Positions 24,648 through 40,070 of a stretch of DNA of 64,000 nt are shown here, piece by piece (the first letter of the stretch is position 1; every line of letters begins with the position of its first letter). Source of the stretch: Thermoplasmata archaeon (GTDB taxonomy: Archaea > Thermoplasmatota > Thermoplasmata > Lutacidiplasmatales > UBA184); assembly GCA_052326305.1 (NCBI GenBank), contig JBKQPJ010000015.1, forward strand, positions 35,208-99,207, read 5' to 3'. The translations under genes and the position numbers were made by a program. The notes beneath the pieces are model-generated. The model was not told the origin of the DNA. It searched no databases and was given only the letters and a program-made list of their open reading frames with translations.

Positions 24648-24666
24648 GGCCGGCCTCAGGCTAACC

Positions 24667-25747: not shown

Positions 25748-26455
25748 ATGGCCGCCGGCGAACCCGACCTCTACGCGGCCGAGGGCCCGGTGGGCGTCGT
25801 CGTCATCCATGAGGTGTTCGGGCGAGACGAGTACGTCGGCTCGGTCGGGCGCGCGCTCGCCACCGCCGGCTTCGCCGCCGCGACGGTCGACCTGTACCAC
25901 GGGCGCCACGCCGGGACCCTCGACGAGGCGCTCGCCCTCCGCGGGGCCCTCGACGAAGGCACGGTCCTCTCCCAGCTCGACGCCGCGGGGGCGGCCCTGC
26001 GCTCGATGCCGCGGCCACCGACGCGCGTCGGCCTCCTCGGGTTCTGCATGGGCGGCGGGTTCGCGCTGCTCGGGGCGTGCCGGCGGCCGTTCGACTTCGC
26101 CGTCGACTACTACGGGCGGATCGACCGGGCGGAGGAGATCGACGGGGCCGTGGGGCCCGTCCTCCTGCTCCTCGCCTCCGAGGACGAGCGCGTCACGCCG
26201 TGGGCGTTCTCGGAGCTCCTTCCGGCGGCACGGAAGTCGAAGAAGCGGGTCACGGTCGAACTGTACCCCGGGGTCCGGCATGCTTTCCACCGACCGGGCT
26301 GGGAGGGGCACGATCCCTCGGCGGCGCGGGATGCGTGGAGCCGCACCCTGGGTTTCCTGCGGGAGCAGCAGCCCGGCGGCGGGAGCGGCCGTTCCGGACG
26401 CGACGGCCCGCGCCGCTCGGCGCGCCAGAGCGTGCGGCACGGGCATCGTAGTTAA
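25748..26455 (+). CDS. Dienelactone hydrolase family protein
   Basis: MAAGEPDLYAAEGPVGVVVIHEVFGRDEYV... matches DLH layout with a GFCMGGG nucleophile elbow. I place the start at the internal ATG at 25748 of ORF 25316..26455. Confidence 0.75.
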   Translation: MAAGEPDLYAAEGPVGVVVIHEVFGRDEYVGSVGRALATAGFAAATVDLYHGRHAGTLDEALALRGALDEGTVLSQLDAAGAALRSMPRPPTRVGLLGFCMGGGFALLGACRRPFDFAVDYYGRIDRAEEIDGAVGPVLLLLASEDERVTPWAFSELLPAARKSKKRVTVELYPGVRHAFHRPGWEGHDPSAARDAWSRTLGFLREQQPGGGSGRSGRDGPRRSARQSVRHGHRS

Positions 26456-26479
26456 ATCCTCCCTGGACGGGCCATTCTC

Positions 26480-27838
26480 CTACTGCCCTGCCGATTCCCC
26501 TACAAGCATAGCGGATGGGGCTCCGGCAGGGGCCGGACCGCTGAGGAAGTCGGGCATGACTCCGTGCTCGAAAATCTCGTGGATTAGGACGGTCAGGTTG
26601 TAGGCCAGGATCTTCGCCAACAGCTCGTTGACCTGGGCTGTGGGATTCTTGGATCGTAGCGTCTCCCCGAACTTCCGCTTGAGGGCCGAGAAGACTGACT
26701 CCACATTCGACCGAGCATGGTACTTGGCCTCGAACTCCTCCCGGTGCATCTGGAAGAACAGGTACGCCTTGCGCCATAGAAGCGAATGGCTGCGGGCGCG
26801 CGCCTCCGGTGTTCCGCTCCTCAACGTTGTGCGACCGGTTTGATTGGACCGGAACGGAACGTAGAGGTCGAAACCCATCTCTTCAGCGAGTGCGTAGTTC
26901 GCCCGCGCCGAATACGCCTTGTCACCGAAGACTTCCTTGAGGCAAAGACCCGCCTTCGCTGCCTGCCGGATGAGCGGCTCGAACTGTGGATTGTCCGCTC
27001 CCTCCTTTCCTGTCACGGAAACCGCGGCGATGATGTGTGTCTTGACGCCGGCGAGGGCATGGGCCTTGATCCAGAGGTGTTCCCGCTTCTCCCCGTGCTT
27101 TTCCTCTCTCCACGCGCCGAACGAGGTCGTTTGGATGCCCGTCGAGTCAGGGGCGAAGCCACTTTCCAATGCCGCGACCGGGAGGGCCGACCGTGTGATG
27201 AGTTCGTGCAGTATCGGGGTCACATCCTCCCTATTCAGGACTTCCGAGGAGATCGTGTAGTGCGGGGCCTTCGGCAACTGACCCCGCTCGACGGCGAAGC
27301 CGAAAAGACCCCTCGCCCGCCGGCACGAAAGCTGCGAATAGACTTTCTGGACTGAGCAAAAGAGTTGATCCGCGAGCGCAATCGGCGGCCGCCCGGCGTG
27401 GTGGGGATCCCTCTCCGGCTCGGGGATACCCACGACGAGGTCCCGGAGAAGAATGTCGAAGAGACGAATCTCCTCTGTTTGCGCCCGGTCGTACGCCGCC
27501 CATGCCTGGGGGTAGGTGAGCGGAACTCGCTCGGAGACCGTCTCGCCCGAGGGGAGAGTTGTCTGCTTTTCGAGGTAGAACCGAACGGATGCTGCATGCT
27601 TGCAGGGCAGGCCACGCGAGGAGTAGTCCTGGCAGGAACACTCGGGACCCTTCTCGGCGAGATGCACTCGGTACGAACCCGGTCCGCTCTGAGACTTGAC
27701 CAGGAAGAGATCATCACGCACTTGTTCAATGGCTCCGGGAGTCGCTGCGATGAGCCTGCCCTTCGCGACCCGATCAGCGTCGATACTCCAGCCCCCCCAC
27801 CCCGAGGCTGGACTCGGCGGGCCCTCCAGACTCTGCAT
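26480..27838 (-). CDS. DDE transposase (IS4/IS5-like DDE_Tnp_1) with N-terminal SWIM-type zinc finger
   Basis: Contains CSCQDYSSRGLPCKHAASV (SWIM CxCx(n)CxH), DKAYSARANYALAEEMG, and YHARSNVESVFSALKRKFGETL (R..VE..F..LK). Start is uncertain: the Met at 27838 is preferred and Mets at 28000 and 28231 are alternatives. Confidence 0.75.
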   Translation of the reverse strand: MQSLEGPPSPASGWGGWSIDADRVAKGRLIAATPGAIEQVRDDLFLVKSQSGPGSYRVHLAEKGPECSCQDYSSRGLPCKHAASVRFYLEKQTTLPSGETVSERVPLTYPQAWAAYDRAQTEEIRLFDILLRDLVVGIPEPERDPHHAGRPPIALADQLFCSVQKVYSQLSCRRARGLFGFAVERGQLPKAPHYTISSEVLNREDVTPILHELITRSALPVAALESGFAPDSTGIQTTSFGAWREEKHGEKREHLWIKAHALAGVKTHIIAAVSVTGKEGADNPQFEPLIRQAAKAGLCLKEVFGDKAYSARANYALAEEMGFDLYVPFRSNQTGRTTLRSGTPEARARSHSLLWRKAYLFFQMHREEFEAKYHARSNVESVFSALKRKFGETLRSKNPTAQVNELLAKILAYNLTVLIHEIFEHGVMPDFLSGPAPAGAPSAMLVGESAGQ

Positions 27839-27886
27839 CGTTCCTCCCCACCTACCGTTGCCTACGTGTAGGCTATGGGCCTGCCG

Positions 27887-27893
27887 ATATAAA
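27887..27893 (-). promoter_or_regulatory. Strong TATA (ATATAAA) upstream of the transposase, flanked by two gcctacgtg direct repeats
   Basis: The sequence reads gatataaagg. cgcctacgtg occurs at 27859-27868 and 27902-27911. The first copy is part of the palindrome GCCTACGTGTAGGC at 27860-27873. Confidence 0.45.
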
Positions 27894-27971
27894 GGTGTAT
27901 CGCCTACGTGGGCGCCAACCCATAGGCTATAGTTAAGTAGCCGACCCCCCGTCAAGGAGATTGGAGAGTCC

Positions 27972-28178
27972 GTGCCGGGAATCTTCAGGTCCCCAATCAT
28001 TCTCGTCCGCGAGAAGTCACCCTCGGTCCGCGTGACGATCCCCGAGGGTGTCGCCAAGGCCCTCGGAGCAGAGCCCGGTAAGGACTTGGTTTGGACGCTC
28101 GACCTCAAGGCAGGTTGGGTTACGGTCTCGGCGGAGCCGCCTGAATTTGCTCCCAAGAATGCGTCCAAGCGACGCTGA
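27972..28178 (+). CDS. AbrB/MazE-like (SpoVT/AbrB swapped-hairpin) small DNA-binding protein
   Basis: 68 aa with a GTG start. VRVTIPEGVAKALGAEPGKDLVWTLDLKAGWVTV matches the AbrB-type pattern. Confidence 0.45.
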   Translation: MPGIFRSPIILVREKSPSVRVTIPEGVAKALGAEPGKDLVWTLDLKAGWVTVSAEPPEFAPKNASKRR

Positions 28179-28319
28179 ACCCAAGCCCGACCCGCGGGCC
28201 CTTGGCGCCGCCGATTCCCGTCAGAGCGCACGAAGAACTAGCTCGGAGGCATTGAAAGGACTTTCCTTCCAAAGGAAAGTGCCTAATAGGAAGGTTGTGT
28301 TAGGAATGTCGATTAGAAC

Positions 28320-28676
28320 ATGTCAGCCTCGACAGGAGCGCAGAGACTATTCTCCCAGACGTTCCTTCAAGAAGCGTTGGCTCAGGAAGTTCATCGACTA
28401 CTGTCACTTCAGTACGCCCGAGGGATTCTCGAGGCGCTAGACGAACATCACGAGGGGCTGGACGTCAGGTGGTTTGATGTCAAGGTTGTCGGCGTTGAAG
28501 GGTCGGGCAGGACTGCGTACGTAGTGGTCAAGAAGCTCTCCGCCGCCGGTTGGATATCTTCTAGGGCAGGCACCAAGCCCCAGCGTTGGCTTCTAACCCC
28601 GAAGGGGAAGGAAGCACTGGATCTCGCTCGTCAGGGAGATTCCATAGGAAACGGGGGGCGGGGGCCCGCTAGATGA
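28320..28676 (+). CDS. Putative winged-helix regulator translationally coupled to the C5-methyltransferase
   Basis: 118 aa. Its stop overlaps the methyltransferase start as ATGA. The C-terminal WISSRAGTKPQRWLLTPKGKEAL looks like a wing. Confidence 0.4.
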   Translation: MSASTGAQRLFSQTFLQEALAQEVHRLLSLQYARGILEALDEHHEGLDVRWFDVKVVGVEGSGRTAYVVVKKLSAAGWISSRAGTKPQRWLLTPKGKEALDLARQGDSIGNGGRGPAR

Positions 28677-29923
28677 GGGGGAATCGGTTCGGGTTCGTCG
28701 ACCTCTTTTGTGGAGCGGGCGGGTTTGCCGAGGGGTTCCTACAGGCCGGGACCGACCGTTCGGAGTTCCAACTGCTCGCGGCCTCGGATGTGCATCGCCA
28801 CGCGCAGGCAACTCACGAGTACCGATTCGGCACTCAGCTCGGTATCCCGTACCGGTTCATCCGGAAGGACATCAGGGACCCGGGCCTCCTTCCTGAGGTC
28901 CGCGAAGCGGTTTCATTAGGGTCCGAAGTCGATGTGGTTTGCGGTGGCCCACCCTGCCAGGGATTCTCGGTCTTCGGCGCAAGGCGCCGGGACGACCCGA
29001 GGAACGATCTGTTCCACCCCTACCTACAGATAGTGCATGCGCTCAGGCCGCGATACTTCGTCATGGAGAACGTGCCCGGCTTCGTCTACATGTATCGGGG
29101 TATGGCCGAGCAACGCATCCGCGAGGCGGTCGATAGCCTGAGGCGGCCTGGTTACACCCTAGCGGGACCGATCTTCGTCAATGCGGCGTCGTTTGGGGTT
29201 CCCCAGTCTCGGGAGCGGGTCATCTTCCTGGGATCGCGCGATGACCAACCGAGGATCGGCTCGGTGCCGGTGCCCGAGGGCATCCACTCCCCATCGGTGG
29301 GGGAGGCGATTTCGGACCTCGCGTTTCTCGGGTCGGGCATGAAGGCAATCGACTATGATCCCCGGTTCCCCCCGGCTTCCGATTACCAGAGGGACTCCCG
29401 TCTCGGCCGGTCCAAGACGCGACCGACTTGGGACGGCAGGCTCCAAAACCACGAGTCCTCGCGGCACACTTCCAGGGTCCTGACACGGTTTCGGCTCGTT
29501 CCGAAAGGGCACTCGACCAAGGATGTGAAAGAGGTGCTGGTCCGCGAAGGGGTCGACTCCGGCAAGAAATGGTGCGTGCGCATTGACGATGCCGACCCGT
29601 CCTTCACGCTCACGACCATTCCGGACGACTTCATCCACTACTCGCAGGACAGGAGCCTGACCGTGCGTGAGTGTGCGCGCCTCCAGTCCTTCGATGATTC
29701 GTTCGTGTTCCTCGGTCCCCGGACAACGGGTGGCGGAGGCGCGGGAAACAAGGTGCGGAACACCGATCTTCCCCAGTATACACAAGTCGGAAACGCCGTG
29801 CCACCGCTAATGGCGCGGGGCATCGCGTTGACGCTTCTCAGGAATCTGGAGAAGACATCCGCTCACCCAGATGGGCCCGAACGACCTTCAGGAACCGCGC
29901 GAGTTCCTTTGGTCGCGGTCTGA
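28673..29923 (+). CDS. DNA (cytosine-5)-methyltransferase
   Basis: Motif I FCGAGGF, motif IV PPCQGFS, motif VI ENVPGF, and a C-terminal QVGNAVPP are present. Confidence 0.9.
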   Translation: MRGNRFGFVDLFCGAGGFAEGFLQAGTDRSEFQLLAASDVHRHAQATHEYRFGTQLGIPYRFIRKDIRDPGLLPEVREAVSLGSEVDVVCGGPPCQGFSVFGARRRDDPRNDLFHPYLQIVHALRPRYFVMENVPGFVYMYRGMAEQRIREAVDSLRRPGYTLAGPIFVNAASFGVPQSRERVIFLGSRDDQPRIGSVPVPEGIHSPSVGEAISDLAFLGSGMKAIDYDPRFPPASDYQRDSRLGRSKTRPTWDGRLQNHESSRHTSRVLTRFRLVPKGHSTKDVKEVLVREGVDSGKKWCVRIDDADPSFTLTTIPDDFIHYSQDRSLTVRECARLQSFDDSFVFLGPRTTGGGGAGNKVRNTDLPQYTQVGNAVPPLMARGIALTLLRNLEKTSAHPDGPERPSGTARVPLVAV

Positions 29924-30623
29924 CGTTCCCCTCCTGACCGTCGCCGAACAGGAAGAACAGGTCGCGTGCCTGGGCGGCCTCCACGATGTCAAAGTCCATT
30001 TCCTTGCGAAGGGCAGCCTGCGTTGAGAGGCAGTGGGGGTGGCCCTTCGACATCAACATCGTCCGTCCCATGAAATCGAAGAACTCCGACTGGGAAATCC
30101 TCACCTTGCTGTTGACGAGAAGAAGGGGCACGATTGACGAACCCGGCGGGAGATGGGTGACGACGTCGGCCGGCCACCGGGCAGTTTGTCTATTTACCAC
30201 CCCATCCGCACCGAGAATGTACCCGATGGCGACGTCGGTCTTCTCCGAAGGTTCTGATTGAGTCGGCTCTCCGGCCTTCCATAGCGTGTAAGTCCCGTAA
30301 GTCGTGGAGACCTCATTGAAGACGAAGAGGGAGGGCCAATCGTGCACGAACTCGAACGCCAAGTGGGTCAGGTAGTCCTGGAAGAGGGCACCGACGATGT
30401 TGCGGGACAGGTTCTGATTGAGGGAGAACTCCGTCTTCGTATTCCTCCGCCCTAGCCAGTTGTAGCCGTCCACGAGTTCCGTCAAGTGTTCTGAAGGTGC
30501 GCGCCCTGCTCGGACATCGTAGCATGATTGGATCTTGGCGAGCCTCATCGCTAGCTCGTCATGTCCGGGCGTCCCGTCATTGACGAGCACCTCGCGAATA
30601 TACACCGACAGCAGATGGGCCAT
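29838..30623 (-). CDS. Putative type II restriction endonuclease, cognate of the adjacent methyltransferase (the enzymatic call is speculative)
   Basis: 261 aa unique ORF. It is convergent with the M gene and its 3' end overlaps it by 86 bp. It has a possible D...(N/E)xK core (TDVAIGY...LLLVNSK). The call rests on position alone. Confidence 0.35.
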   Translation of the reverse strand: MAHLLSVYIREVLVNDGTPGHDELAMRLAKIQSCYDVRAGRAPSEHLTELVDGYNWLGRRNTKTEFSLNQNLSRNIVGALFQDYLTHLAFEFVHDWPSLFVFNEVSTTYGTYTLWKAGEPTQSEPSEKTDVAIGYILGADGVVNRQTARWPADVVTHLPPGSSIVPLLLVNSKVRISQSEFFDFMGRTMLMSKGHPHCLSTQAALRKEMDFDIVEAAQARDLFFLFGDGQEGNVRPRPKELARFLKVVRAHLGERMSSPDS

Positions 30624-30750
30624 CCGGGGTCCATCTGCGAATCTGTAGATAGTCGTTCACACGCCTTAGCGGCCGGTTCTGTGTCCATGTGGCAATTCGC
30701 CGGCAGGGGTGGCGGTGCGGTTACCTATCGTGCTAGACTGACCTGAAAGT

Positions 30751-31224
30751 GTGGCGGATCGGTTGACTCACGCCCAGAGGAGCCGACTGATGTCTCGAAT
30801 ACGGGGTAGGGACACGTTTCCGGAGCTGGCACTCCGGAAAGCCCTGCGCAGACGGGGAGTGCGGTACCGGTCAAACCAGCGGGTCCACGGCATCCGTGTC
30901 GATTTGGTCCTGCGGGGAACGAAGACCCTCGTGATGGTCCAGGGCTGTTTCTGGCACGGCTGCCCCCGTCACTATATCGCTCCGAAATCCAACTCCCGAT
31001 TCTGGAAGAAGAAGATTGTAGCGAACAGAGAGAGGGACCGGTGGCAGGCGGCAATCCTCAGCGCGATGGGGTGGCAGGTGGTCGTGTTGTGGGAGCACGC
31101 CCTCAGGACCGACCCGGCCCGCGCCGTGGAACGATTGATAACCACCGCGCCTCTCCCGTGTAGGGCGGCCCGGCAGGGGGATGCCGGTTACCTGTCAGAT
31201 GAGCGGGGAATGGAGATCCGATAA
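30751..31224 (+). CDS. vsr: Very-short-patch repair endonuclease Vsr
   Basis: TFPELALRKALRRRGVRYR...MVQGCFWHGCPRHY gives a full Vsr signature. Confidence 0.85.
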   Translation: MADRLTHAQRSRLMSRIRGRDTFPELALRKALRRRGVRYRSNQRVHGIRVDLVLRGTKTLVMVQGCFWHGCPRHYIAPKSNSRFWKKKIVANRERDRWQAAILSAMGWQVVVLWEHALRTDPARAVERLITTAPLPCRAARQGDAGYLSDERGMEIR

Positions 31225-33337
31225 GCAGGGCGCGGAGGTCTTCCGCCCCCGAGCCCGCGTCATCAACGTCCTCGGCCGCGACCTGATCCAGAACCCGGTG
31301 GTCGCGATCCAGGAGCTGGTCAAGAACGCGTACGACGCGGACTCCCACCGCATCCGGCTCACTTTCGAGGGACCGCTGGAGAAGGGGCTCGGCGGCCTCA
31401 CCATCGAGGACGACGGGGATGGGATGACCCTCGAGACCGTCCGCACCGCGTGGATGGAACCGGCGACGATCGCGAAGCGCCGCCAGACCCGGACCCGGGC
31501 GGGCCGTCGGGTTACCGGGGAGAAGGGGATTGGCCGGTTCGCTTCCGCCCGCATAGCCAGCCAGCTCGAACTCGACTCCGTTGCCCGGGAGAACGGTCGC
31601 CGGGTTATGGCGCATTTCAACTGGGGAGAGTTCGAGGGCGAGGACCGGTACCTCGACGAGATCCGATGCCGCTGGGAAGAAGGGGCTGCTCCTAGGGGGC
31701 GCGGCCACGGGACGATCCTTCGACTCCGGCAGTTCACCCAGAAGTGGAACGAGGAGAACCTGAGGAATCTGCGGGTCCAGTTATCGAGGTTGCTGCCTCC
31801 CACCGGACCGAAGGCAGACTTCGAGATCGGGTTCGCGGTCGGGGGAACTCTGGGGAAGCGCCTCTCGGGCCCGATCGAGAGGCCCACGTTCATCGAGCAC
31901 GCCCGCTACCAACTACGAGGTCGCGTCGAAGCCGACGGCTCGGTGACGGCGGAGGTATCGTACCGGTCGAGAAGCGAGCCGTTCGTCGAGAAGGGGGGAG
32001 CCCCAGTCCGTGTTGTCATCGAGCGGGAGGGGGAGGAGGACCGACCGCCGACATGCGGTCCGTTCGAGTTCGACATCCGTGTTTGGGACCGCGAGCCCGA
32101 GGACATGAGGGAGCTCGCCAAAGCGGCCGGGTCGACCCTCAGGGACGTGAGGATGGACCTCGACGAGCTGAGCGGGCTCCAAGTCTACCGGGACCGGTTC
32201 CGCATCGTCATGCAAACGCGGGATTGGCTGGGCCTCGACCTTCGCCGGGTCCAGAATCCTAGCCTACGCCTGAGCAACAACCAGATCGTAGGTCACGTCC
32301 AGATCGAATCCGACCGGAACACCGGGCTCGTGGACCAGTCCAACCGCCAGGCGCTCGTAGACAGCCCGCAGCTCGACGACTTCGAGGAAGCAATCCTGTT
32401 CCTGCTCAACCGCCTGGAGGTGTTCCGGCGCCTCAAGAGGCGGAGCCCTGAGAGACCGCCGCCCCGTGCCAGCCTGCTCGAAAAGTTCAACCTGACCGAA
32501 CTCCAAGACTACGTAGCGAAGTCGGACCACTCCAAGGACGAGAAGCTCACCTCCATCATCCAGTCGACGGCGGCCGGAATCAAGACCGGCCTCGGCCAGG
32601 TCCGGGAGATTGTATCACGCTACCGACGCCTGGCAACCCTCGGTACCCTCGTCGACGTGATTCTGCACGAAGGGCGGACGCCCATCGCCGCGATCTCCAA
32701 TTCCGTGGAGATTCTGAAGAAGAGCCTGGCCGGAGGACTCCCCGCACGCGAGGCCGCCGAGGTCAAGCACCAGCTCGATGTGGTCGACCACCAGGTCCAA
32801 GTCCTAACCCAACTCTTCGACCGGGTGGCTCCGTTCAGCGGACGGGCCCGGGGCCGCGTCGAGGTAGCCCCCCTGGAGGACATCATCGCTCGGGCGTTCG
32901 CGGTTCACGCCGGTAGGATCGAGAAGGAGGGGGTGCGGGTCGAACTGCCGTCGGGGCAGACAACCATCCGGATGGACCCCATCGATTTGGAGCTCCTCTT
33001 CCTGAATCTCATCGACAACGCCCTCTACTGGCTACAGAAGGTCCCTGCGGGAAAGCGAGCCATCCGGGTAGAGGTGGCCCGAACCGATGGTAGGGTCGAG
33101 GTCGTGTTCTCAGACAGTGGACCAGGGGTCCAACCGGAGATTGCTGACATGATCTGGGACCCCTGGTTCACCACGAAGCCGGGGGGGATCGGCCTCGGGC
33201 TTACCATCGCCGGGGAGACGGCCGCCGAGCACGACGCGACCCTAGGTCTCTCCGAGAAGGGCCCGCTCCCGGGCGCGACGTTCGTTGTCACCTTCAACTC
33301 TCCCGGCGGTGAAGCCACCCGCGAAGGAGTGGAGTAG
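31181..33337 (+). CDS. Fusion protein: N-terminal paraMORC/MutL-like GHKL ATPase (HATPase_c_3-type) plus C-terminal histidine kinase (HisKA + HATPase_c)
   Basis: The N-terminal GHKL has an N-box (IQELVKNAYDAD), G1 (IEDDGDGM) and G2 (GEKGIGRFASA). The C-terminal region has an H-box (HEGRTPIAAISNSVEIL) and a classical kinase ATPase (FSDSGPGV...GGIGLGLTIA). It overlaps the vsr 3' end by 44 bp. Confidence 0.8.
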   Translation: MPVTCQMSGEWRSDKQGAEVFRPRARVINVLGRDLIQNPVVAIQELVKNAYDADSHRIRLTFEGPLEKGLGGLTIEDDGDGMTLETVRTAWMEPATIAKRRQTRTRAGRRVTGEKGIGRFASARIASQLELDSVARENGRRVMAHFNWGEFEGEDRYLDEIRCRWEEGAAPRGRGHGTILRLRQFTQKWNEENLRNLRVQLSRLLPPTGPKADFEIGFAVGGTLGKRLSGPIERPTFIEHARYQLRGRVEADGSVTAEVSYRSRSEPFVEKGGAPVRVVIEREGEEDRPPTCGPFEFDIRVWDREPEDMRELAKAAGSTLRDVRMDLDELSGLQVYRDRFRIVMQTRDWLGLDLRRVQNPSLRLSNNQIVGHVQIESDRNTGLVDQSNRQALVDSPQLDDFEEAILFLLNRLEVFRRLKRRSPERPPPRASLLEKFNLTELQDYVAKSDHSKDEKLTSIIQSTAAGIKTGLGQVREIVSRYRRLATLGTLVDVILHEGRTPIAAISNSVEILKKSLAGGLPAREAAEVKHQLDVVDHQVQVLTQLFDRVAPFSGRARGRVEVAPLEDIIARAFAVHAGRIEKEGVRVELPSGQTTIRMDPIDLELLFLNLIDNALYWLQKVPAGKRAIRVEVARTDGRVEVVFSDSGPGVQPEIADMIWDPWFTTKPGGIGLGLTIAGETAAEHDATLGLSEKGPLPGATFVVTFNSPGGEATREGVE

Positions 33338-33340
33338 ACG

Positions 33341-34432
33341 ATGGCGGCCGCACCCATCCCGGCTCCCGCCGGCGATTCCTGGCGGATCGCAGTCGTGGAG
33401 GATGAGGAGGATATCCGGGGGCAGATTTGTCACTGGCTGGGGAGGATGGACCCGGTCGAGGGCAAGTCGTTCCAACCCACCCCGTTCCCGGACTTCGACG
33501 GGGCCTGGGCTGGGCTCATGGATTGGAAGTTCGACATTGTCATCCTCGACATCTTCCGAGGACACGGGGGAGTGCCTGCCAGCCCGGGGCTCGATATCAT
33601 GGAGCGAATCAAGCGGACCGCCTTCGTCCCGCTCATCGTCTACACCGCGCTCCCGGAGCGGGTCACGGGACTTCGTTCTCCCATGGTTCGCGTTGTGGGC
33701 AAGGTCTCGGGCCTGGGTGCCCTAGAAGGCGAGGTCCGGCAGTTCCTCGCGTGGCGATTACCCCAGCTCGCGCGGGCGCTGAGAGCCACGTTCGATGACA
33801 CGCTTCGGGACTACATGTGGAGGTTCGTGGACGCCCACTGGGATCGGTTCGAGTCGATGGTCGACAAACCGGACTTCGGACGATTGGTAGTACAACGCCT
33901 CTCGGAGGCATACACCGCTGACGGCTCGAGGGGAGTCCTAGGTGCAGCCTACGGCCCGGTGGCTACGACCGGGCCCCCCGCGGACAAGGTCCATCCCGCC
34001 TCGGTCTACGTCATGCCGGTCCCTACCGGCGTCCTCCGTCTGGGAGACATCCGCGTGCGCCGGGCAGGTGAGAGCCCACCGAAGTATCTCGTGGTCCTTC
34101 AACCGAGCTGCGATACCGTCCGGATCGCACCCGACGCAGAAGGGCAGGGTGCGAGGGACCCCAACGTCGACCGTGTCCTCTGCGCGCGGGCGTACCCACG
34201 GCCCCCGCACAAGTCGGATCACGATTATCCACTTCCGGCGTTCCTCGCGGTTCCGGACCTGATGGTCGAGTTCCACGACCTCGAGATTGCTCCGATCGAT
34301 GACCTGTTGAGTCTCGACTGTGTAGCGAGGGTGGCGAGCCCGTTCGCCGAGCAGCTCGCCGCCAAGTTCGCTGCCTACATCGGACGTATCGGAACGCCAG
34401 AGATAGAAGCGCCCCCGGCCCCTGCGACGTAG
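33341..34432 (+). CDS. Response-regulator receiver (REC) domain fused to an uncharacterised C-terminal effector domain (about 240 aa)
   Basis: The REC region reads IAVVEDEEDIRGQ...FDIVILDIFRGHGG...PLIVYTALPE, with the phospho-acceptor Asp. The C-terminal domain matches nothing I recognise. It starts 3 bp after the HK stop. Confidence 0.75.
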   Translation: MAAAPIPAPAGDSWRIAVVEDEEDIRGQICHWLGRMDPVEGKSFQPTPFPDFDGAWAGLMDWKFDIVILDIFRGHGGVPASPGLDIMERIKRTAFVPLIVYTALPERVTGLRSPMVRVVGKVSGLGALEGEVRQFLAWRLPQLARALRATFDDTLRDYMWRFVDAHWDRFESMVDKPDFGRLVVQRLSEAYTADGSRGVLGAAYGPVATTGPPADKVHPASVYVMPVPTGVLRLGDIRVRRAGESPPKYLVVLQPSCDTVRIAPDAEGQGARDPNVDRVLCARAYPRPPHKSDHDYPLPAFLAVPDLMVEFHDLEIAPIDDLLSLDCVARVASPFAEQLAAKFAAYIGRIGTPEIEAPPAPAT

Positions 34433-34471
34433 TCCAAGTTCCGAGCATAGCAGATTGTCACGTTCCGTTGC

Positions 34472-35764
34472 GTGTGGCAAACCTATTACCAGGAAGCGAG
34501 TATCAACCCCGGCGTGCGCTCTTCCGCCGATGAATGTCGCCGCCCGATTCCCTGCGGTATTGACTTGTTTTCGGGTGCCGGCGGGTTCGGCCTGGGATTC
34601 GAAGCGGCGGGCTTACCCGTCGTGGCCTCCCTAGACAAGGATGCGGATGCCGTAGCCACCCTCGCCGCGAACCCCCCCATTGGCCCCCGGCTTGTCTTCC
34701 ACACCGACATCCGTTCGTTTGGCCCATTAGCGATGGACAAAGCAATCGAGGGCCTTTCTCCCCGTTACCGAGTCGACTTCCTCATCGGCGGGCCGCCATG
34801 CCAGGGCTGGAGCAGGGTCGGACGAGGGAAGCTACGGTCACTCGGGCGTATCGGGTCCACTCCCGCGCCCTTCGCCGAGGAGCGGAACAGGTTGTATCGT
34901 CCGTTCCTCCGGTATGTGTCCCACTTCCGGCCGCGCGTCGTCCTCCTGGAGAACGTGCGGGGAATGGAGTGCTACTACGGGCACGATGGAACGAAGGCGA
35001 TCACGACAGCACTGGACTCTCTGGGGTACCGGACTAAGGTGGTTCCCCTCGACGCCGCCGACTTCGGGGTGCCCCAGCAGAGAAGGCGACTCGTTATTGT
35101 GGGCGTTAGAGAGGACCTGGGACTGGAGCTGGACACACCGATTGGCCCACCCGCCGGATTGGGCATGGATGGCGCCGCACCGACAGTCCGCGACGCGATC
35201 GGCGATCTCCCGTGGGTCCCGTCGGGGAACCAGAGGGATGTGATGCCTTACCGGAAGCTGGAGGATGCCTCTGCGTACCTCAGCCTCCTCCGCCCCGGAT
35301 GGATGAACGGCTCGGTCACTGCCCATATCACCCGGCCCCACCGCCCGGAGGACCGCGAGGCGTTCCGATCGATGAAACAAGGCGGGATCTACTCTGACCT
35401 ACCCGACCGTCTCAAGCGGTATCGCGACGACATATTTGCCGACAAATATCGGAGGTTGGAGTGGGACAAGCCCAGCCCGTGCCTGACGGCCCACCTCGCG
35501 AAGGACGGCTACTCGCACATCCACCCGAGTCAGACGAGGACGATCTCTGTACGGGAGGCGGCGAGGATTCAGGGGTTCCCCGATTGGTACGTCATAGCCG
35601 GGTCGATGGGGAGCCAATTCCGCCAGATTGGAAACTCAGTCCCCCCTCTGCTAGCGTACGCGCTCGCGATTGCTGTACGGAATTTCCTCGGAGTGAAGTC
35701 GGAAATCTCGTGGGACGTTCTATCGTGTTCCGTCTTGCAGACTGGTACGGTCACGAACGAGTGA
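34472..35764 (+). CDS. DNA (cytosine-5)-methyltransferase (second copy)
   Basis: Contains FSGAGGFGLGF, PPCQGWS, ENVRGM and QIGNSVPP. Confidence 0.9.
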   Translation: MWQTYYQEASINPGVRSSADECRRPIPCGIDLFSGAGGFGLGFEAAGLPVVASLDKDADAVATLAANPPIGPRLVFHTDIRSFGPLAMDKAIEGLSPRYRVDFLIGGPPCQGWSRVGRGKLRSLGRIGSTPAPFAEERNRLYRPFLRYVSHFRPRVVLLENVRGMECYYGHDGTKAITTALDSLGYRTKVVPLDAADFGVPQQRRRLVIVGVREDLGLELDTPIGPPAGLGMDGAAPTVRDAIGDLPWVPSGNQRDVMPYRKLEDASAYLSLLRPGWMNGSVTAHITRPHRPEDREAFRSMKQGGIYSDLPDRLKRYRDDIFADKYRRLEWDKPSPCLTAHLAKDGYSHIHPSQTRTISVREAARIQGFPDWYVIAGSMGSQFRQIGNSVPPLLAYALAIAVRNFLGVKSEISWDVLSCSVLQTGTVTNE

Positions 35765-36089
35765 ACTTGTCGCTATCATCCTGCGCGTCCAGGATCTCGT
35801 CTCCAAGTAGGAAGACAACAACGCGGCCGGTTCCAAGGTCGCGTCGTTCCCCATCGTCCAGCTCCCGCCCGAGTGCTTCGTGGGCGGAGTCGACAATGGT
35901 GTGACTCAAGACCTGCCGGCGATGGACTTGGCCGCCGCAGACAAAAACCGCCTCGCTAGGTCCGCCATTCGCGGTCGTAATCCACTTTGGTGTTGCCTTT
36001 CGCACCTCCACACGCTTGAAACCGACTCGAATCAGATCGAAGTACTTCCGACGCACCATGAAGAGGACCTTCCCGGTAACTGTGCTCAC
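35751..36089 (-). CDS. ASCH-domain protein (PUA-like fold; a candidate reader of modified nucleic acid)
   Basis: FDLIRVGFKRVEVRK matches the ASCH GxKxxExR motif. It is convergent with methyltransferase 2 and overlaps it by 14 bp. Confidence 0.55.
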   Translation of the reverse strand: MSTVTGKVLFMVRRKYFDLIRVGFKRVEVRKATPKWITTANGGPSEAVFVCGGQVHRRQVLSHTIVDSAHEALGRELDDGERRDLGTGRVVVFLLGDEILDAQDDSDKFTRS

Positions 36090-36263
36090 CCCCCTACGTC
36101 CTATCTACAGACCGGGCGTAGTTAGGGTGATTGGGGAGACACTCCAATGACGGGGGTGGGGGGGTCGGTGCGCCGGCCCCCGAAGTTCTTCTCGGAAGTT
36201 CGAACATTCTTAGTCCAATCATTCGTTTCATCTACCGCCTCGACCCGAGGCGGGAGGTGGTGA

Positions 36264-36443
36264 ATGGGAAAGGGAAGCAAGGGCGGACCGACTCCGAACG
36301 ACCAGCGATCGCGTGCGATGAACTCGCAGGACGTTGTCGGCAAGATGGCGATAGACCACCGTGCCGGACAGCTTGATCCACGCAATCCTGATTTTTCTAA
36401 GGCTCGGGCTCCGCCCGACCAAACCACTGAATCCACACAGTAG
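36264..36443 (+). CDS. Small protein (59 aa) with Shine-Dalgarno-like site; below the ORF-track cutoff
   Basis: GGAGGTG sits 6 nt upstream of the ATG. The product is MGKGSKGGPTPNDQRSRAMNSQDVVGKMAIDHRAGQLDPRNPDFSKARAPPDQTTESTQ. A hairpin+T-run (possible terminator) lies 19 nt downstream. Confidence 0.3.
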   Translation: MGKGSKGGPTPNDQRSRAMNSQDVVGKMAIDHRAGQLDPRNPDFSKARAPPDQTTESTQ

Positions 36444-36461
36444 GGGCACCGTAGCCCTACC

Positions 36462-36492
36462 GGCCCCCGGCCTTGGCCGGGGGCCTCTTTTT
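36462..36492 (+). terminator. Possible terminator: perfect 11-bp GC hairpin followed by a T-run (bacterial intrinsic-terminator-like signal)
   Basis: The sequence is ggcccccggcc-tt-ggccgggggcc-tcttttt. Confidence 0.4.
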
Positions 36493-36994
36493 CGTCAGAG
36501 ATTCGAGAGTAGGTCCCGACCCGTTACAGCGCAATTTTGACGGCCGGTAGGCCGCGACTTGTTGCAGAACCCGCGGGTAGGAAGGGTTTAGCGGTGGGGG
36601 CGCGTGTCATTGCCCTCGAATGCCGTCTAAGAAGCGCCGCGACTTGACGAGTCAGTGGCTCGTCAAGCAGGACAAGAAATCGCAGAGGCTCATCCCCGTT
36701 GGGCTGTTCGGTTTGGTTGGGGCTTGCCGCCACTTCACCATCGATTGTAAGTCAGACCGCCTTACCAACAAGGGTCCCGGAGTCGTCGCCATCGAAATCG
36801 TAAGGCTGGTGGGCCGGCGTATCGAGGTGACGCTTGAGAACCTTCCTGCTGGGCAGACCTCGGCGGTCAGTCCCTATGCGGTCCGAAACGTGGTTTGTGC
36901 GTTAGATGGATTGAGCTATGCTCTCCCGACCTTCCGAAACCCGCGAACCAAGCGTGCCTCCGACTGAGGGCGGAACTGTACCGCTATCGCGGCA

Positions 36995-38074
36995 TCACAA
37001 TTCTTGATTTTCTCTTGTAACAGCTCGTGGCTTTTGTTTCGGGTCCATCGATATCGTTGTAGCCGATTCGACTTTCACTGCCGTCGCCGGAGGCGGTGGA
37101 CGAAGCACCGGGCGTTCGATTAGGCCGACCAGGGCGCTGCCGAACATCGCTTCGAGGTCCAGGGCGTTGATTCTCTCCTGAGCGGTACTCTCGAACTCCT
37201 TGAGCGCAGGGTCCTCGGAGAACTTCTTGAGATCCCGGAAGAAGTCGCCTAGGCCGGCCTCTTCCGCCAGTCCCTCTAGCTCGGCGTCGCTCGGGAAAGT
37301 GATCATGACTCCGCCGTACGTCCGGAGTTGCGCTAGCGCGGCCTCAATGGTCAGTTTCAGCACCCCTGCGGAGGGGACTTCCTTGGGAAGGTGCTCGAAA
37401 TCTTCACTCTCAAAGACGTTGATGAAGACAGTGCGCCGCTCGTTCCCATCCACAGAGAGTATCACCATCGACTGCCGCCGAATTAGACCTCGCGCTCTCA
37501 ACCACGCTAGGTCCGAGGCAAGCCGGTCGGTGTTCTCGAACTCAACCTGTTGGATCGATTCTGCGAGTCGATCCGCAGGAATTTCCACTCGGGTCTTTTC
37601 CTCCCGGACCATGTCAGAGAACTCGGGCGGTACAATCACGCCCAACGCCCTTTTCCCCGGCTCAGGCGTTCGAAGCAGCTTGACGAAGGTGGAGTCCAAA
37701 GAACCGGTAAGTAGGCCCGAGACGACACGCTGAAGGTCGATTCTGGCGACTGTTTCGAAATCCCTTCCCTTTAGGTGAATCTCACCGGAGGGATGGAACG
37801 AGATGTGTAGACCTGCCGGCAGGAGGCCGGGCATCGGAATGACGTACTTTCCGCCATCGGTGGCCGTCACGGTTTTCAATACGCGCAGACCCGGCGAAGT
37901 AGCCCCCGGCGCGGCCGTCGTGGGCACAACCCGAAGTTCCTTCTCCCTGGACGGCATTTGCTGGGGGAAGGAATCGGACCTAAAGGATAGCTCGGAGTCG
38001 CAATACGGCTTCACTTGTCGAATCTGTTCAGTTCTCGGGATATGGCCGCCATCGGAAGCCAAGCCGTACAACAC
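36995..38074 (-). CDS. Hypothetical protein (359 aa), last gene of a three-gene island operon
   Basis: Unique composition with no motif I recognise. It lies 30 bp downstream of the preceding gene. Confidence 0.5.
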   Translation of the reverse strand: MLYGLASDGGHIPRTEQIRQVKPYCDSELSFRSDSFPQQMPSREKELRVVPTTAAPGATSPGLRVLKTVTATDGGKYVIPMPGLLPAGLHISFHPSGEIHLKGRDFETVARIDLQRVVSGLLTGSLDSTFVKLLRTPEPGKRALGVIVPPEFSDMVREEKTRVEIPADRLAESIQQVEFENTDRLASDLAWLRARGLIRRQSMVILSVDGNERRTVFINVFESEDFEHLPKEVPSAGVLKLTIEAALAQLRTYGGVMITFPSDAELEGLAEEAGLGDFFRDLKKFSEDPALKEFESTAQERINALDLEAMFGSALVGLIERPVLRPPPPATAVKVESATTISMDPKQKPRAVTRENQEL

Positions 38075-38104
38075 AACCCGAAGGGCTGAGAGGCACCGGG
38101 CATT

Positions 38105-38895
38105 TCATGCATGGGCCGTTAGGTGCTCCAAGAAGTCCTCCTTTTCCTCCCAGAAGCCAACGATGTCGGCCCGCCTCTTGAGGGTGGATACTATCGGTCC
38201 CGTCCAAACGTCGTCTTCTACTGAATCGTCCAGTAGGCAAGCAGACCGGAACTGGAGCCCCGTATCCCGAATTTCGAGGAACGCGACGATGGCCTTGTTA
38301 ACCAGTGTGCTAGCCCAACCGGAACTCAATGACGAGAAGGCATACATCAACGTCCGTGGCTGCGAAGCACTCAGAGGTTCAAGGTCGAAATCAAAGACCC
38401 AGTGTTTCCCACCGGCTCCTGTATAGTCCCTCCAACGTGCGTGCTCGATATGGGCCGAAGTCAGCCATCCCGCAACGTCGTCAGCGAACCCAAGTTTAGA
38501 TCGAGCCTTCGCCGTCATTGCGATGTGCTGGGCTGACCTCGCCGCCTCGGTGACCCGGGTGAGTGCTTCGGACAGATCACCTATCGGCGCCCTTGCTACA
38601 ATCTCACTGCCATGCGCCGACACTCCGAGCCTCCTCAGAGTGGTTTCAAAGAACCAGTTCTGGCGCGATCCCTCCTTGAGTTCCACTCCGTGGAGGAATA
38701 GGAAGCCGACTGATTCGCCCATGTCGGACAGTTCGACGGTCTGGCCACGAATCGAAATGCGCACCTGTATCGGGTCGTTGTCCTGGTTTAGGAACGGCGT
38801 GGTGAGCACACAGTCCTCCCCATCCTGCTCGACTGAGAACACGGCCTCCAAGTGAGAGAGGTACTGGCCGAGGACGCGCGTACAGTCAGTCACGG
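38105..38895 (-). CDS. Hypothetical protein (about 263 aa), middle gene of the operon
   Basis: GTG start (VTDCTRV...) preceded by GGAGGA at -8. It overlaps the upstream stop as GTGA. I do not use the track ORF's N-terminal extension out to 39115. Confidence 0.5.
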
Positions 38896-39363
38896 GAAAT
38901 CCTCCATTGACGTCTGAGTGTGGATTGGGTATGGGCCGGGAGCGATCCTGCACTCCTTTAGAAAGTCCACGAGCGCCCCGTCGGGGTCGCCCGACCTGAC
39001 TTCGGAAACCGGATAGGAGGGGCTGTCTGCGAACCTCTCGTCTGGATAGTGCTTGTGCGGTCCCTTCATACGGGAGTTCGTAACGGGGTCGAGATGGCCT
39101 GGCTTGTAATCCCACCGGCGAATAATCACGCTGTTACGAACCACCAGAGCGAATCCGTAACGATTCGGCTTGCCCGGGCTGAATTTCCTGCTTACCCAGC
39201 CTCGAATCGTCATCGGGGTTCCATCCTCACCGATGACCGGGAGCACGAGGTACCTGCTGCCGTCGGCCCTCGAATCCCATTGGACCGGACCGGCAAGCTG
39301 TTTGGGCAGCTCGTAGAGGTAGTCAGCCTCTCCCTTGCTGATAGGGGCCGCTCCCTCTGCCAT
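38890..39363 (-). CDS. Hypothetical protein (157 aa), first gene of the operon
   Basis: Non-repetitive ORF translationally coupled to the next gene. Confidence 0.45.
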   Translation of the reverse strand: MAEGAAPISKGEADYLYELPKQLAGPVQWDSRADGSRYLVLPVIGEDGTPMTIRGWVSRKFSPGKPNRYGFALVVRNSVIIRRWDYKPGHLDPVTNSRMKGPHKHYPDERFADSPSYPVSEVRSGDPDGALVDFLKECRIAPGPYPIHTQTSMEDFP

Positions 39364-39537
39364 ATCGGTTCGCCGGACGCTTCCGCTGTCTCTGAGCGCT
39401 GTTGAGCACTGGAGACATAAAGCGAGGGGTCGGAGGGGTATCGAAACGGTTTCAGTTCGGAACCAGTTCGATTTCGGGGTAGCGGCTCTTCGGCTGCGGC
39501 GCGGCCCGCTTGAGCAGCTAGTGCCACCAGAACCCCC

Positions 39538-39604
39538 GATTCTCCTACAGCCGCCAAATCCAGGCGGGAATTCTCCTACTGCCGAGGATTATCCCTACAA
39601 AGCC
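39538..39604 (+). repeat. Right-hand copy of the island-flanking direct repeat (tandem 1.5 copies); its left partner is at 26474-26510
   Basis: gattctcctacagcc...attctcctactgccgaggattatccctacaaagc is compared with attctcctactgccctgccgattcccctacaagc at 26474. Confidence 0.5.
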
Positions 39605-39698
39605 TGCGGCACGCGCACCGTTAAATAGCGGGGGCCGTACCTCGGCCCTACCCGTGAGCCGAGGATCCCCTCTGGGGGTTCCGCTGACGCGAGGCACC

Positions 39699-40070
39699 AT
39701 GGCGCGACCGATTTACGTGCGATTCGAGACCCCGAGCGACCTCGCCGACAAGGCCCTGCAGCTCGTCCAGATCGCGAGCGAGACCGGCAAGGTCCGGGTC
39801 GGGACGAACGAAGTGACGAAATCGAGCGAGCGCGCGGAAGCGAAGCTCGTCGTCATGGCGGAGGACGTCGACCCGGTCGAGATCCTCGTCCACATCCCGA
39901 TGCTCTGCGAGGAGAAGCGGATCCCGTACGTCTACGTGCCGAAGAAGCAGCGGCTCGGCCAGTCGGCCGGGCTGTCGAAGTCCGCGGCGAGCGTGGCGAT
40001 CGTGGAGGCCGGCGACGCGAAGGCGCTTCTCGACGAGATCGCGGCCACCTTCCCCACGCTGAAGAAGTGA
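39699..40070 (+). CDS. rpl7ae: Ribosomal protein L7Ae (K-turn binding)
   Basis: [12 protein letters not shown]...[12 protein letters not shown]...[10 protein letters not shown]...[12 protein letters not shown]. is a 123 aa canonical L7Ae. GTTAAATAG at 39620-39628 is a likely TATA, which leaves a 5' leader of about 50 nt. Confidence 0.9.

Follow-up and report, generated by a model that had tools for sequence, protein, structure and literature searches.

Gene content of the locus

The open reading frame at 33341..34432 on the forward strand of the window (the whole 64,000-nucleotide stretch of DNA that was analysed) is genuine and encodes a protein of 363 residues, referred to below as the target, which matches at 100% an NCBI 'hypothetical protein' from a Thermoplasmata archaeon MAG. 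Its ATG lies 3 nt past the stop of the upstream kinase ORF, and the surroundings form a low-GC island. The cassette in the window is ordered Vsr, MORC-like histidine kinase, target (a receiver, or REC, domain fused to a predicted MazF-like domain) and C5 methylase. The features and the evidence used to assign them were:

28673..29923, + strand: second C5 methyltransferase, Dcm1 (Pfam DNA_methylase, 3.1e-50)
30751..31224, + strand: Vsr very-short-patch endonuclease (Pfam Vsr, 2.6e-19), with a 44 nt overlap with the kinase start
31181..33337, + strand: kinase, 718 residues (Pfam, NCBIfam, motif conservation, position)
33341..34432, + strand: target gene, comprising REC, helical hairpin, predicted MazF/PemK-like β-domain and conserved tail (ORF, homologues, AF2)
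33374..33706, + strand: REC domain, residues ~12-122 (conserved residues, Foldseek, weak Pfam and PDB sequence matches)
33713..33967, + strand: helical hairpin or stalk, residues ~125-209 (AF2 secondary structure, conservation)
33980..34381, + strand: predicted MazF/PemK-like β-barrel and C-terminal helix, residues ~214-347 (Foldseek, weak HHalign, conservation)
34382..34408, + strand: C-terminal tail G348-R349-x-G351-T-P353-(D/E)354 (conservation; low-confidence model)
34472..35764, + strand: C5 cytosine DNA methyltransferase Dcm2 (Pfam DNA_methylase, 6.7e-56), 40 nt 3' of the target

An orthologue of Dcm2, 76% identical, occupies the equivalent position in a related locus (L015), and at nearly all other loci Dcm2, not Dcm1, is the better-scoring counterpart of the linked methylase; Dcm2 is likely the cassette's cognate modification enzyme. 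Dcm1 and a convergent ORF of 261 residues (29838-30623, reverse strand) probably constitute a separate type II restriction-modification (R-M) system.

Across related loci, the kinase gene is immediately 5' of the response-regulator gene wherever sequence is available at that position. A C5 methylase was found nearby in 14 of the 16 contexts with enough flanking sequence, the two contexts lacking one being those of Acidobacteriota (L002-5) and Enterobacter mori (L020), and Vsr adjoins the kinase and response-regulator pair in eight (L006-8, L010-12, L015, L018). The neighbours of the target are a kinase, a methylase or Vsr; no conserved small antitoxin-like ORF of the MazE/PemI type was found beside it, which fits control by phosphorylation. 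A search for direct repeats flanking the island and for tRNA integration sites gave nothing convincing. The data support a defence-island or mobile context for the target, not a housekeeping one.

The homologue family

A total of 58 full-length homologues of the target were retrieved, and the family amounts to ~1,960 clusters at 50% identity, counted as cluster representatives. It is large and conserved and has no family name, its members being labelled 'CheY-like chemotaxis protein' or 'response regulator' in the source databases. Besides archaea, at least eight bacterial phyla contain carriers, and the gene is often plasmid-borne (Campylobacter jejuni/coli conjugative plasmids of ~51 kb, Acaryochloris marina pREB1, and plasmids of Bacillus, Hymenobacter and Enterobacter mori). 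The distribution is patchy, which fits horizontal transfer. Bacterial members carry a helical insert of ~40 residues. Occurrence of the C-terminal domain as a stand-alone protein was considered and rejected, as the short matches in the search of representatives were contig-edge fragments (inspected for P0071).

Receiver domain

The N-terminus of the target is a divergent yet complete REC domain. The hallmark residues E20/D21, D65, D70, T102 and K121 are conserved at 93-100% in 170 homologues and are placed as expected of a receiver, with E20-D21 after β1, D70 at the end of β3, T102 after β4 and K121 after β5; the codon of the phospho-acceptor D70 occupies nt 33548-33550. The AF2 model of the full protein has a pLDDT of 88 and a pTM of 0.78, and its REC portion shows a predicted (βα)5 flavodoxin-like fold with a shortened helix α4. 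In Foldseek comparisons of this AlphaFold model, target-normalised TM values against the AdeR, PhoB and RR468 receivers were 0.75-0.83. Against Pfam Response_reg (PF00072), the full protein scored 14.4 bits and its first 140 residues 17.6 bits, both below the gathering cut-off of 30.2, and some homologues reach 32-33 bits. The acidic pocket and the Asp of the 'DIVILD' motif, both pointed out in an earlier note made from the sequence, are thus present and conserved; its description of the domain as canonical holds for the hallmark residues and the fold but was slightly generous in view of the sub-threshold Pfam score and the reduced α4.

Stalk, output domain and tail

The receiver is followed by three predicted helices (residues 125-137, 140-173 and 177-204; AF2), in which P141, R145, Y158, W160, W167 and R186 are conserved. 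At the other end of the protein, the tail is modelled with a pLDDT of 45-64 (AF2), and its residues R349 and G351 are conserved at 99% and 100%, respectively, in the 170 homologues.

Searches with residues ~125-363, whether the single sequence or a profile of 25 sequences was used, returned no significant match in Pfam, NCBIfam, PADLOC or the PDB sequences, in agreement with the earlier note, which had found no recognisable family in this region. When 25 family members were searched against Pfam at E<=5, no C-terminal match was obtained, PF02452 (PemK_toxin) included. For the AlphaFold model of the C-terminal domain (pLDDT 87.5, a confident model), the top 50 Foldseek matches in the PDB were all MazF, PemK or Kid proteins, with E-values from 8e-4 and TMt of 0.55-0.73, and PemK/MazF proteins led the matches in the viral BFVD library. 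The order of strands and helix in the predicted structure is the same as in MazF/PemK/Kid. Alignment with hhalign against a MazF profile, built from relatives of E. coli MazF and three further, approximate sequences, gave the same register, with scores that are weak and short of significance (P-values of 0.0005-0.02 and a probability of 2-13%). The output half of the target is therefore predicted, from modelling, to take the MazF/PemK-toxin fold. The structure-based comparison proposed in the earlier note (AlphaFold followed by a fold search) thus led to toxins of this group and not to a housekeeping output domain. The outcome which that note had named as contrary to its view, a standard winged helix-turn-helix in a conserved non-defence context, was not observed, as no helix-turn-helix was detected and the context is that of a defence island or mobile element.

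Residues conserved in the β-domain are H218, Y223, G235-D236, P255-x-C257-D258, P299, S333-P334 and E337. The archaeal clade carries N275, H294 and E310 in place of the near-invariant K, R and D of the family. The segments LGDIRV, YLVVLQPSCD and RVLCARAY, singled out in the earlier note, are real motifs, conserved family-wide, and make up β1 to β3 of the C-terminal barrel. As in MazF/PemK/Kid (PF02452), a 'GD' stands at the start of β1, a hydrophobic β2 ends in Pro, β3 contains 'LCA', β5 carries a D(x)Q motif and the C-terminal amphipathic helix starts with S/A-P. The target nevertheless differs from these toxins: its sequence is not significantly similar to theirs, it does not conserve the catalytic Arg and Thr/Ser, C257-D258, R/H294 and R349-x-G351 are its own invariant features, and the domain follows REC and a helical stalk in one chain and has no antitoxin partner. 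In the register given by the weak hhalign and secondary-structure alignment, and hence provisionally, the position of MazF R29 is variable and the region of T52 corresponds to the conserved Ala282. Since the catalytic residues of MazF are missing here, a nuclease activity is putative, and the invariant Cys-Asp together with several acidic residues suggests another chemistry, which makes the assignment as an RNase weak.

A classical nuclease core, of the PD-(D/E)xK or another type, was considered and rejected, since no such motif occurs among the conserved residues and the fold search gives MazF-like barrels; the sequence-library searches likewise found no PD-(D/E)xK, HNH, GIY-YIG or PLD signature in the target. 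The guess of a degenerate nuclease-like core made in the earlier note is consequently upheld in so far as the predicted fold is that of the MazF/PemK/Kid endoribonuclease toxins, but not as regards a PD-(D/E)xK-type core or the MazF catalytic residues. Its suggestion of a new output domain agrees with the failure of every sequence library to name the domain, but understates a family of this size and a cassette kind already in the literature (PMC8011034).

Kinase partner

The adjoining protein consists of a MORC/paraMORC-type GHKL ATPase (residues ~26-203), a DHp domain with H496 in the motif LHEGRTP (residues ~488-549) and a HATPase_c domain (residues ~599-706), as indicated by Pfam matches to HATPase_c_3 (5.7e-19), HisKA (1.5e-5) and HATPase_c (6.2e-21). 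The first ~185 residues, and only these, match the N-terminus of the BbrUII/HgiDII restriction enzymes in NCBIfam (NF050001, 4e-18), and the REase_II models of PADLOC match the same end of the protein. Each of H496, the N, G1 and G2 boxes and the Bergerat motifs of the N-terminus is unchanged in 14 orthologues or deviates in one at most. On these sequence grounds, the protein appears to be the cognate histidine kinase, with a conserved phospho-His from which phosphotransfer to the target is predicted.

Comparison with known systems

A literature search returned nothing on a system of MORC kinase and REC-MazF protein, on MADS, or on GHKL proteins with response regulators in antiphage contexts; what it did return were the 2021 study, the Detocs paper and Iyer et al. 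(2008), all taken up below. The kind of cassette found here was described bioinformatically in 2021 as a paraMORC-associated two-component-like system with the families HEF_HK (PF19191) and Response_reg_2 (PF19192) (Bellieny-Rabelo, Pretorius and Moleleki, 2021; PMC8011034). That study covered bacteria only, left the region C-terminal to the receiver unanalysed, so that the output domain was never assigned there, and proposed a regulatory role. Its system resembles the target cassette in having a soluble kinase-like protein with HATPase_c_3, a DHp-like His domain and HATPase_c, in the adjoining response-regulator-like gene, in its patchy spread and in its linkage to a C5 methylase, there usually upstream, and to Vsr, there typically just downstream of the response-regulator-like gene. 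In contrast, the receivers of the target family match the classical Response_reg and the kinase in the window matches HisKA. No match to PF19191 or PF19192 was obtained at E<=0.1-10 for ~15 proteins (from the window, Bacillus, Acaryochloris, Hymenobacter, Campylobacter, Enterobacter and MAGs), with the reservation that the Pfam copy searched may lack both models, and both are absent from the precomputed Pfam annotation of the homologues. Membership in Response_reg_2/HEF_HK was rejected on this non-match at the level of the Pfam models.

Detocs (DtcA/DtcB/DtcC) is an antiphage phosphorelay running from kinase to REC to effector (Rousset et al., 2023; 10.1101/2023.01.24.525353). By analogy, the target may likewise couple a histidine kinase to a REC domain that carries a cell-killing effector in place of a DNA-binding domain, and both systems share the defence-island context and a modular effector position. 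Detocs differs in its TPR-based sensor, where the target kinase has a HATPase_c_3/MORC-like one; in the third, REC-only 'buffer' protein DtcB, for which no REC-only ORF exists in the window cassette or related loci; in its effectors, which are mostly PNP ATP nucleosidases and not of the MazF-like fold; and in having no methylase or Vsr linkage, whereas the target cassette has both. Apart from REase_II on the kinase, no PADLOC model matches the target or the kinase. Membership in Detocs was rejected on the different sensor, the absence of DtcB and the lack of an HMM match.

The cassette also resembles BbrUII/HgiDII and the paraMORC R-M systems, where paraMORC ATPases occur in linkage with C5 methylases and Vsr (Iyer et al., 2008; PMC2292703), in the type of N-terminal GHKL ATPase and in the linkage to a C5 methylase and Vsr-family protein. 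Compared with BbrUII/HgiDII, the target kinase has a histidine-kinase core where the nuclease part would be, and the output resides on a separate REC-fused protein.

Proposed function and alternatives

Overall, the cassette looks like an R-M system under the control of a two-component signalling pair. We give about even chances to the reading that the target is the effector, a toxin activated by phosphorylation, of a Detocs-like defence or addiction module that is linked to methylation and carried as a four-gene mobile cassette. The analysis shows how the domains are arranged, that all phosphorelay residues are conserved, which fold is predicted and which genes are linked; what is sensed, which way control runs, and that the protein is toxic and on what it acts are inferred. 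The methylase would mark the host's own DNA, and the MORC/paraMORC GHKL module of the kinase would engage DNA and respond to unmodified DNA, either foreign or post-segregational, leading the kinase to phosphorylate itself on H496 and pass the phosphoryl group to D70 in the receiver. Phosphorylation of D70 may relieve autoinhibition, promote dimerisation via the helical stalk, or both, switching on the MazF/PemK-fold domain as a toxin, most likely directed at RNA or another nucleic acid, with growth arrest or abortive infection as the result. Vsr would repair the T:G mismatches that arise from deamination of 5-methylcytosine.

Precedents for a toxin effector are provided by the Detocs phosphorelay (10.1101/2023.01.24.525353) and by R-M contexts in which paraMORC ATPases occur together with C5 methylases and Vsr (PMC2292703, PMC8011034). 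Kinase or response-regulator genes are split or truncated at several loci, as is often seen for costly toxic modules, which also favours a toxin. Against it stand the lack of conservation at the MazF catalytic positions described above, the archaeal substitutions K275N, R294H and D310E at otherwise near-invariant positions, the two contexts without a nearby methylase, and the regulatory role, not that of an effector, proposed in the sole paper on such cassettes. A more specific form of the toxin reading is put forward tentatively, as a possibility that we would not yet back: an R-M system with a phosphorelay as its restriction arm, in which a MORC-like DNA-clamping ATPase-kinase reads methylation and signals, by phosphorylation of an Asp, to an antitoxin-free and hitherto unrecognised family of MazF-fold toxins, giving methylation-gated abortive infection or post-segregational killing.

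Several other readings were weighed. The kinase and response regulator might be a restriction enzyme split in two, with a C-terminal DNA nuclease or nickase that uses a new active site on a MazF-like scaffold and cuts unmethylated DNA when phosphorylated. The pair does hold the 'R' position beside the C5 methylase, most cassettes contain no other nuclease except Vsr, the kinase shares its N-terminal homology with BbrUII/HgiDII, and the conserved D236, D258, K275, D310 and E337 could bind metal; but the absence of the four nuclease signatures searched for, and structural neighbours that are RNases, make this unlikely, and proteins of the MazF/Kid/CcdB fold are not known to cut double-stranded DNA. 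The C-terminal domain could also act as a poison without being an enzyme, since CcdB and MazF share one fold (the CcdB/MazF superfamily), or as a protein-binding module, such as one that binds gyrase or the ribosome, or an adaptor recruiting Vsr or the kinase. The missing MazF catalytic residues and a conserved flexible tail, GRxGTPD, that resembles an interaction motif would suit such a role, which is nonetheless improbable given that the best structural matches are MazF/PemK and not CcdB and that the invariant polar residues, of which there are many (C257, D258, R294/H, D310/E), would be more usual in a catalytic site.

Quite doubtful, too, though less so than a non-enzymatic poison, is a regulatory two-component system that tunes the neighbouring R-M genes through a C-terminal nucleic-acid-binding or mRNA-processing regulator which is not a toxin. 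This was proposed for the published sister system (PMC8011034), the majority of response regulators act as regulators, and R-M systems require the timing of methylase versus nuclease; a toxin-like fold without a helix-turn-helix or other detected DNA-binding output domain, the many cassettes that hold no restriction gene to control, and a MORC-like ATPase, an odd sensor for gene regulation, argue the other way. That the target is an ordinary housekeeping response regulator, by chance in a variable region, is hardly credible: the database labels would suit it, but the same link to a MORC-like kinase, C5 methylase and Vsr recurs on plasmids, in archaea and in at least eight phyla of bacteria, and both the patchy distribution and the low-GC island speak against it.

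If the toxin-effector reading is correct, the cassette would unite three subjects hitherto treated apart, namely methylation-based self/non-self discrimination, MORC-type GHKL ATPases and two-component phosphotransfer as an immune trigger, and would define a new antitoxin-free, phosphorylation-regulated branch of MazF-fold proteins. MORC-type GHKL ATPases are the ancestors of the eukaryotic MORC chromatin proteins, and their prokaryotic roles are largely unknown; for two-component phosphotransfer as an immune trigger, Detocs was the sole precedent found here. A phosphorelay restriction arm, if real, would occur in archaea as well as in many bacterial phyla, and on conjugative plasmids of Campylobacter. 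The toxin-effector reading provides a functional hypothesis for ~2,000 sequence clusters now labelled only 'response regulator' or 'CheY-like', and cultured carriers (Campylobacter, Acaryochloris, Bacillus, Hymenobacter and Enterobacter mori) make it directly testable.

Response regulator gene and receiver domain

The response regulator (RR) ORF (33341-34432, forward strand) encodes 363 aa from an ATG placed 3 nt past the stop codon of the upstream kinase ORF, and its product shows 100% identity to a Thermoplasmata archaeon MAG protein annotated as 'hypothetical protein'. The earlier note had described a canonical receiver with an acidic pocket and the DIVILD Asp, followed after about residue 125 by a region of no recognisable family. 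The receiver occupies the N-terminal ~120 residues and carries all of the hallmark residues (E20-D21, D65, D70 as the 'DIVILD' Asp, T102 and K121), which are 93-100% conserved across 170 homologues. The PhoB receiver was the top PDB sequence match (E 7e-4), and in the AlphaFold model (pLDDT 88, pTM 0.78) the domain overlays the receivers of AdeR, PhoB and RR468 at target-normalised TM values of 0.75-0.83. However, Pfam Response_reg matched weakly, scoring 14.4 bits on the full-length protein and 17.6 bits on its N-terminal part (cut-off 30.2 bits), and helix α4 is reduced; the receiver is divergent, not textbook. Residues ~125-363 gave nothing significant in Pfam, NCBIfam, PADLOC or PDB sequences, whether a single sequence or a 25-sequence profile was used. 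As the receiver hallmarks and fold are present and the output region is unmatched in these libraries, the observation is confirmed in all but the word canonical.

An initial search returned 58 full-length, mainly metagenomic homologues (27-73% identity), and an exhaustive search of 1.84 billion cluster representatives with a profile of the C-terminal region returned 1,961 proteins at E<=1e-3 (321 at E<=1e-30), labelled in databases only as 'CheY-like chemotaxis protein', 'response regulator' or 'hypothetical'. Since nearly all are 350-420 aa long and the output domain begins near residue 115-125, the architecture of a receiver plus this domain is common to nearly the whole family; one shorter match that was inspected is a contig-edge fragment. 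Past the receiver, the near-invariant residues (window numbering) are R186, H218, Y223, P226, G235-D236, P255-x-C257-D258, K275, R294 and P299, and towards the C-terminal end D310, Q312, P334, E337 and R349-x-G351-x-P353-D354. The archaeal clade, consisting of the window protein and its five nearest relatives, has N275, H294 and E310 in place of three of these residues and lacks a ~40-residue insert carried by bacterial members.

Predicted fold of the output region

Modelled on their own, residues 122-363 gave a confident prediction (pLDDT 87.5) with a long helical hairpin (residues ~125-209) followed by a β-rich domain, ordered in full-length numbering as β(236-240), β(248-252), short helix, β(278-285), β(295-298), long β(307-318), short helix, β(326-331) and C-terminal helix (335-346). 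We take this order of elements to be that of the published MazF fold. In a Foldseek search of the PDB all 50 of the top 50 matches were MazF/PemK/Kid toxins (best E 8e-4, probability 1.00), with TM values of 0.55-0.73 normalised to the ~110-aa target over ~120-130 aligned columns, and PemK/MazF-family proteins again came top in BFVD, an independent collection of viral protein predictions. Profile-profile alignment to a profile centred on E. coli MazF was not significant (P 0.0005-0.02, probability 2-13%) and fell in the structurally expected register, with GD in β1, VVLxP in β2 and K...LCA in β3, and, in one run only, (R/G)Y.F in β4 and D(F)Q in β5. In the register of this non-significant alignment the MazF catalytic residues Arg29 and Thr52 are unconserved in the family, whose own invariant Cys-Asp follows β2.

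Kinase, cassette and genomic island

Features in and beside the island (window positions, strand where assigned individually):
22311-24674, reverse: 787-aa ORF, HHH_5, weak MEDS and KaiC-like ATPase/DUF7504
26480-28231, reverse: SWIM and DDE_Tnp_1 transposase, one island edge
28673-29923, forward: Dcm1, second C5 methylase
29838-30623, reverse: 261-aa ORF with no family match, convergent with and overlapping Dcm1
30751-31224: Vsr, 44-nt overlap with kinase start
31181-33337, forward: kinase, 718 aa
34472-35764, forward: Dcm2, C5 methylase
38105-39115, reverse: PADLOC candidate defence PDC-M24B (E 7e-24), Pfam DUF1828
38890-39363, reverse: PADLOC candidate defence PDC-M24A (E 1e-3), DUF6978
39654-40070: host L7Ae gene, other island edge

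The kinase has three recognisable parts. Residues 26-203 match HATPase_c_3 (MORC-type GHKL, 5.7e-19), the NCBIfam BbrUII/HgiDII restriction-enzyme family (4e-18) and PADLOC REase_II (3.5e-10); residues 488-549 match a HisKA-like DHp (1.5e-5) and the C-terminus HATPase_c (6.2e-21). Among 14 orthologues there is no more than one exception to each of the N-terminal Bergerat motifs (E45, N49, D77xGxG81, G113xKGxG118), to the phospho-His H496 ('LHEGRTP') and to the kinase N, G1 and G2 boxes.

Vsr, kinase, RR and Dcm2 are tightly packed on one strand, with 3 nt between kinase and RR and 39 nt between RR and Dcm2, inside a low-GC island (26000-40000, GC 0.59-0.65 against 0.70-0.75 in the flanks) that also holds the mutually overlapping PDC-M24A and PDC-M24B ORFs. 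A search for integration marks turned up no tRNA gene and no convincing direct repeats on either side of the island, and the L7Ae gene agrees with an archaeal host. Dcm1 and the 261-aa ORF could form a classical type II restriction-modification (R-M) pair of their own, with an unrecognised nuclease. In PADLOC, Dcm2 is matched best, over nearly its full length, by the DISARM class 2 methylase DrmMII (E 3e-94), with no other DISARM component present. Just outside the island, whether the 787-aa ORF is a true gene is uncertain because long ORFs overlap on both strands in this high-GC region.

The closest homologous locus has the same gene order (transposase-Dcm-Vsr-kinase-RR-Dcm), with identities of 86% (kinase), 73% (RR) and 76% (Dcm2), and continues past the cassette into GmrSD and AIPR genes. 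A kinase gene lies immediately upstream of the RR gene at every locus having sequence there. The pair occurs in archaea (Lutacidiplasmatales), in bacterial MAGs (Acidobacteriota, Planctomycetota, Zixibacteria, Polyangiaceae) and on plasmids from cultured strains. The plasmid carriers are Acaryochloris marina MBIC11017 (pREB1), Bacillus sp. H8-1, Hymenobacter sp. NBH84, Enterobacter mori and Campylobacter jejuni/coli/armoricus, the last with 41 records, most of them conjugative plasmids in the range of ~51-56 kb and the largest 75 kb. A C5 methylase, usually more similar to the window's Dcm2 than to Dcm1, lies near the pair in 14 of the 16 distinct contexts with enough flank, and Vsr adjoins it in 8. 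Several homologous loci carry a split or truncated kinase gene (L003 7682-10008, L014 4920-7001, L012 5449-7008), and two Campylobacter plasmids (CP120245.1, CP120299.1) a split RR gene, which may reflect recurrent inactivation of a costly module or assembly error.

Relation to published systems

Iyer et al. 2008 (PMC2292703) connected prokaryotic MORC/paraMORC GHKL ATPases with R-M operons that encode C5 methylases and nucleases of the Vsr family. A 'two-component-like' pair was described, considering bacteria only, by Bellieny-Rabelo et al. 2021 (PMC8011034): an HK-like protein (HATPase_c_3, a new DHp 'HEF_HK' and HATPase_c) and an RR-like protein ('Response_reg_2') without known domain apart from the receiver. 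The two are 91.6% linked in 644 regions, where C5 methylases precede them and Vsr typically follows directly. The window cassette is clearly of the same kind. However, the families of that paper (PF19191/PF19192) match 0 of ~15 proteins scanned, and the receivers here match classical Response_reg, so that by Pfam matching the present family is at least a sister of the published one. One bioinformatic paper has described this kind of system, and Detocs (Rousset et al. 2023) follows a parallel logic: experiments there show that abortive infection can be brought about by a phosphorelay from a kinase to a REC-effector protein. Detocs uses a TPR sensor, a buffer receiver and mainly PNP effectors. 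The literature search found no paper that assigns the output domain of a response regulator to a MazF-like fold, and none that tests a cassette of MORC-like kinase and REC-MazF-like protein. New here are the predicted assignment of the output domain, at fold level, to the MazF/CcdB class, the recognition of the RR family as large, as escaping published Pfam models and as present in archaea, and a specific, testable mechanism.

Proposed mechanism and alternatives

The most likely mechanism, given about even probability, is a methylation-linked phosphorelay that switches on a MazF-fold toxin. The methylase would label self DNA and Vsr mend the resulting deamination damage; the MORC-like module of the kinase would bind DNA and react to unmodified DNA, either an invader's or that left after methylase loss; H496 would be phosphorylated and pass its phosphate to D70 of the receiver; and the MazF-fold domain, freed or dimerised via the helical stalk, would become toxic, most plausibly on RNA. 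The analysis shows the domain anatomy, the conservation of all phosphorelay residues, the predicted fold, the linkage of the genes and their mobile or defence setting; from these the signal, the control logic, and the toxicity with its substrate are inferred. Against the mechanism stand a modest structural match between models and toxins that is wholly a prediction, the absence of the MazF catalytic residues, an invariant Cys-Asp and acidic residues suggestive of different chemistry, the replacement of three near-invariant residues in the archaeal clade, and two contexts lacking a nearby methylase.

The kinase and RR protein might instead form a split restriction enzyme whose C-terminal domain cuts DNA, an unlikely reading that the restriction-enzyme matches of the kinase favour and the toxin matches of the output model oppose. 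Somewhat less probable again is that the pair regulates R-M genes, the role suggested in 2021. Should the C-terminal domain be a non-enzymatic, CcdB-like poison or adaptor, which seems improbable, the missing MazF catalytic residues would be expected, and the invariant Cys-Asp less so. That the protein is an ordinary housekeeping regulator, as its database labels might imply, is very improbable given its mobile, defence-rich surroundings. The Campylobacter plasmids offer a tractable cultured model; there the kinase-RR-Dcm cassette (e.g. locus L019, C. jejuni pCJ14980A 1-4454) adjoins HicAB and an AAA ATPase.
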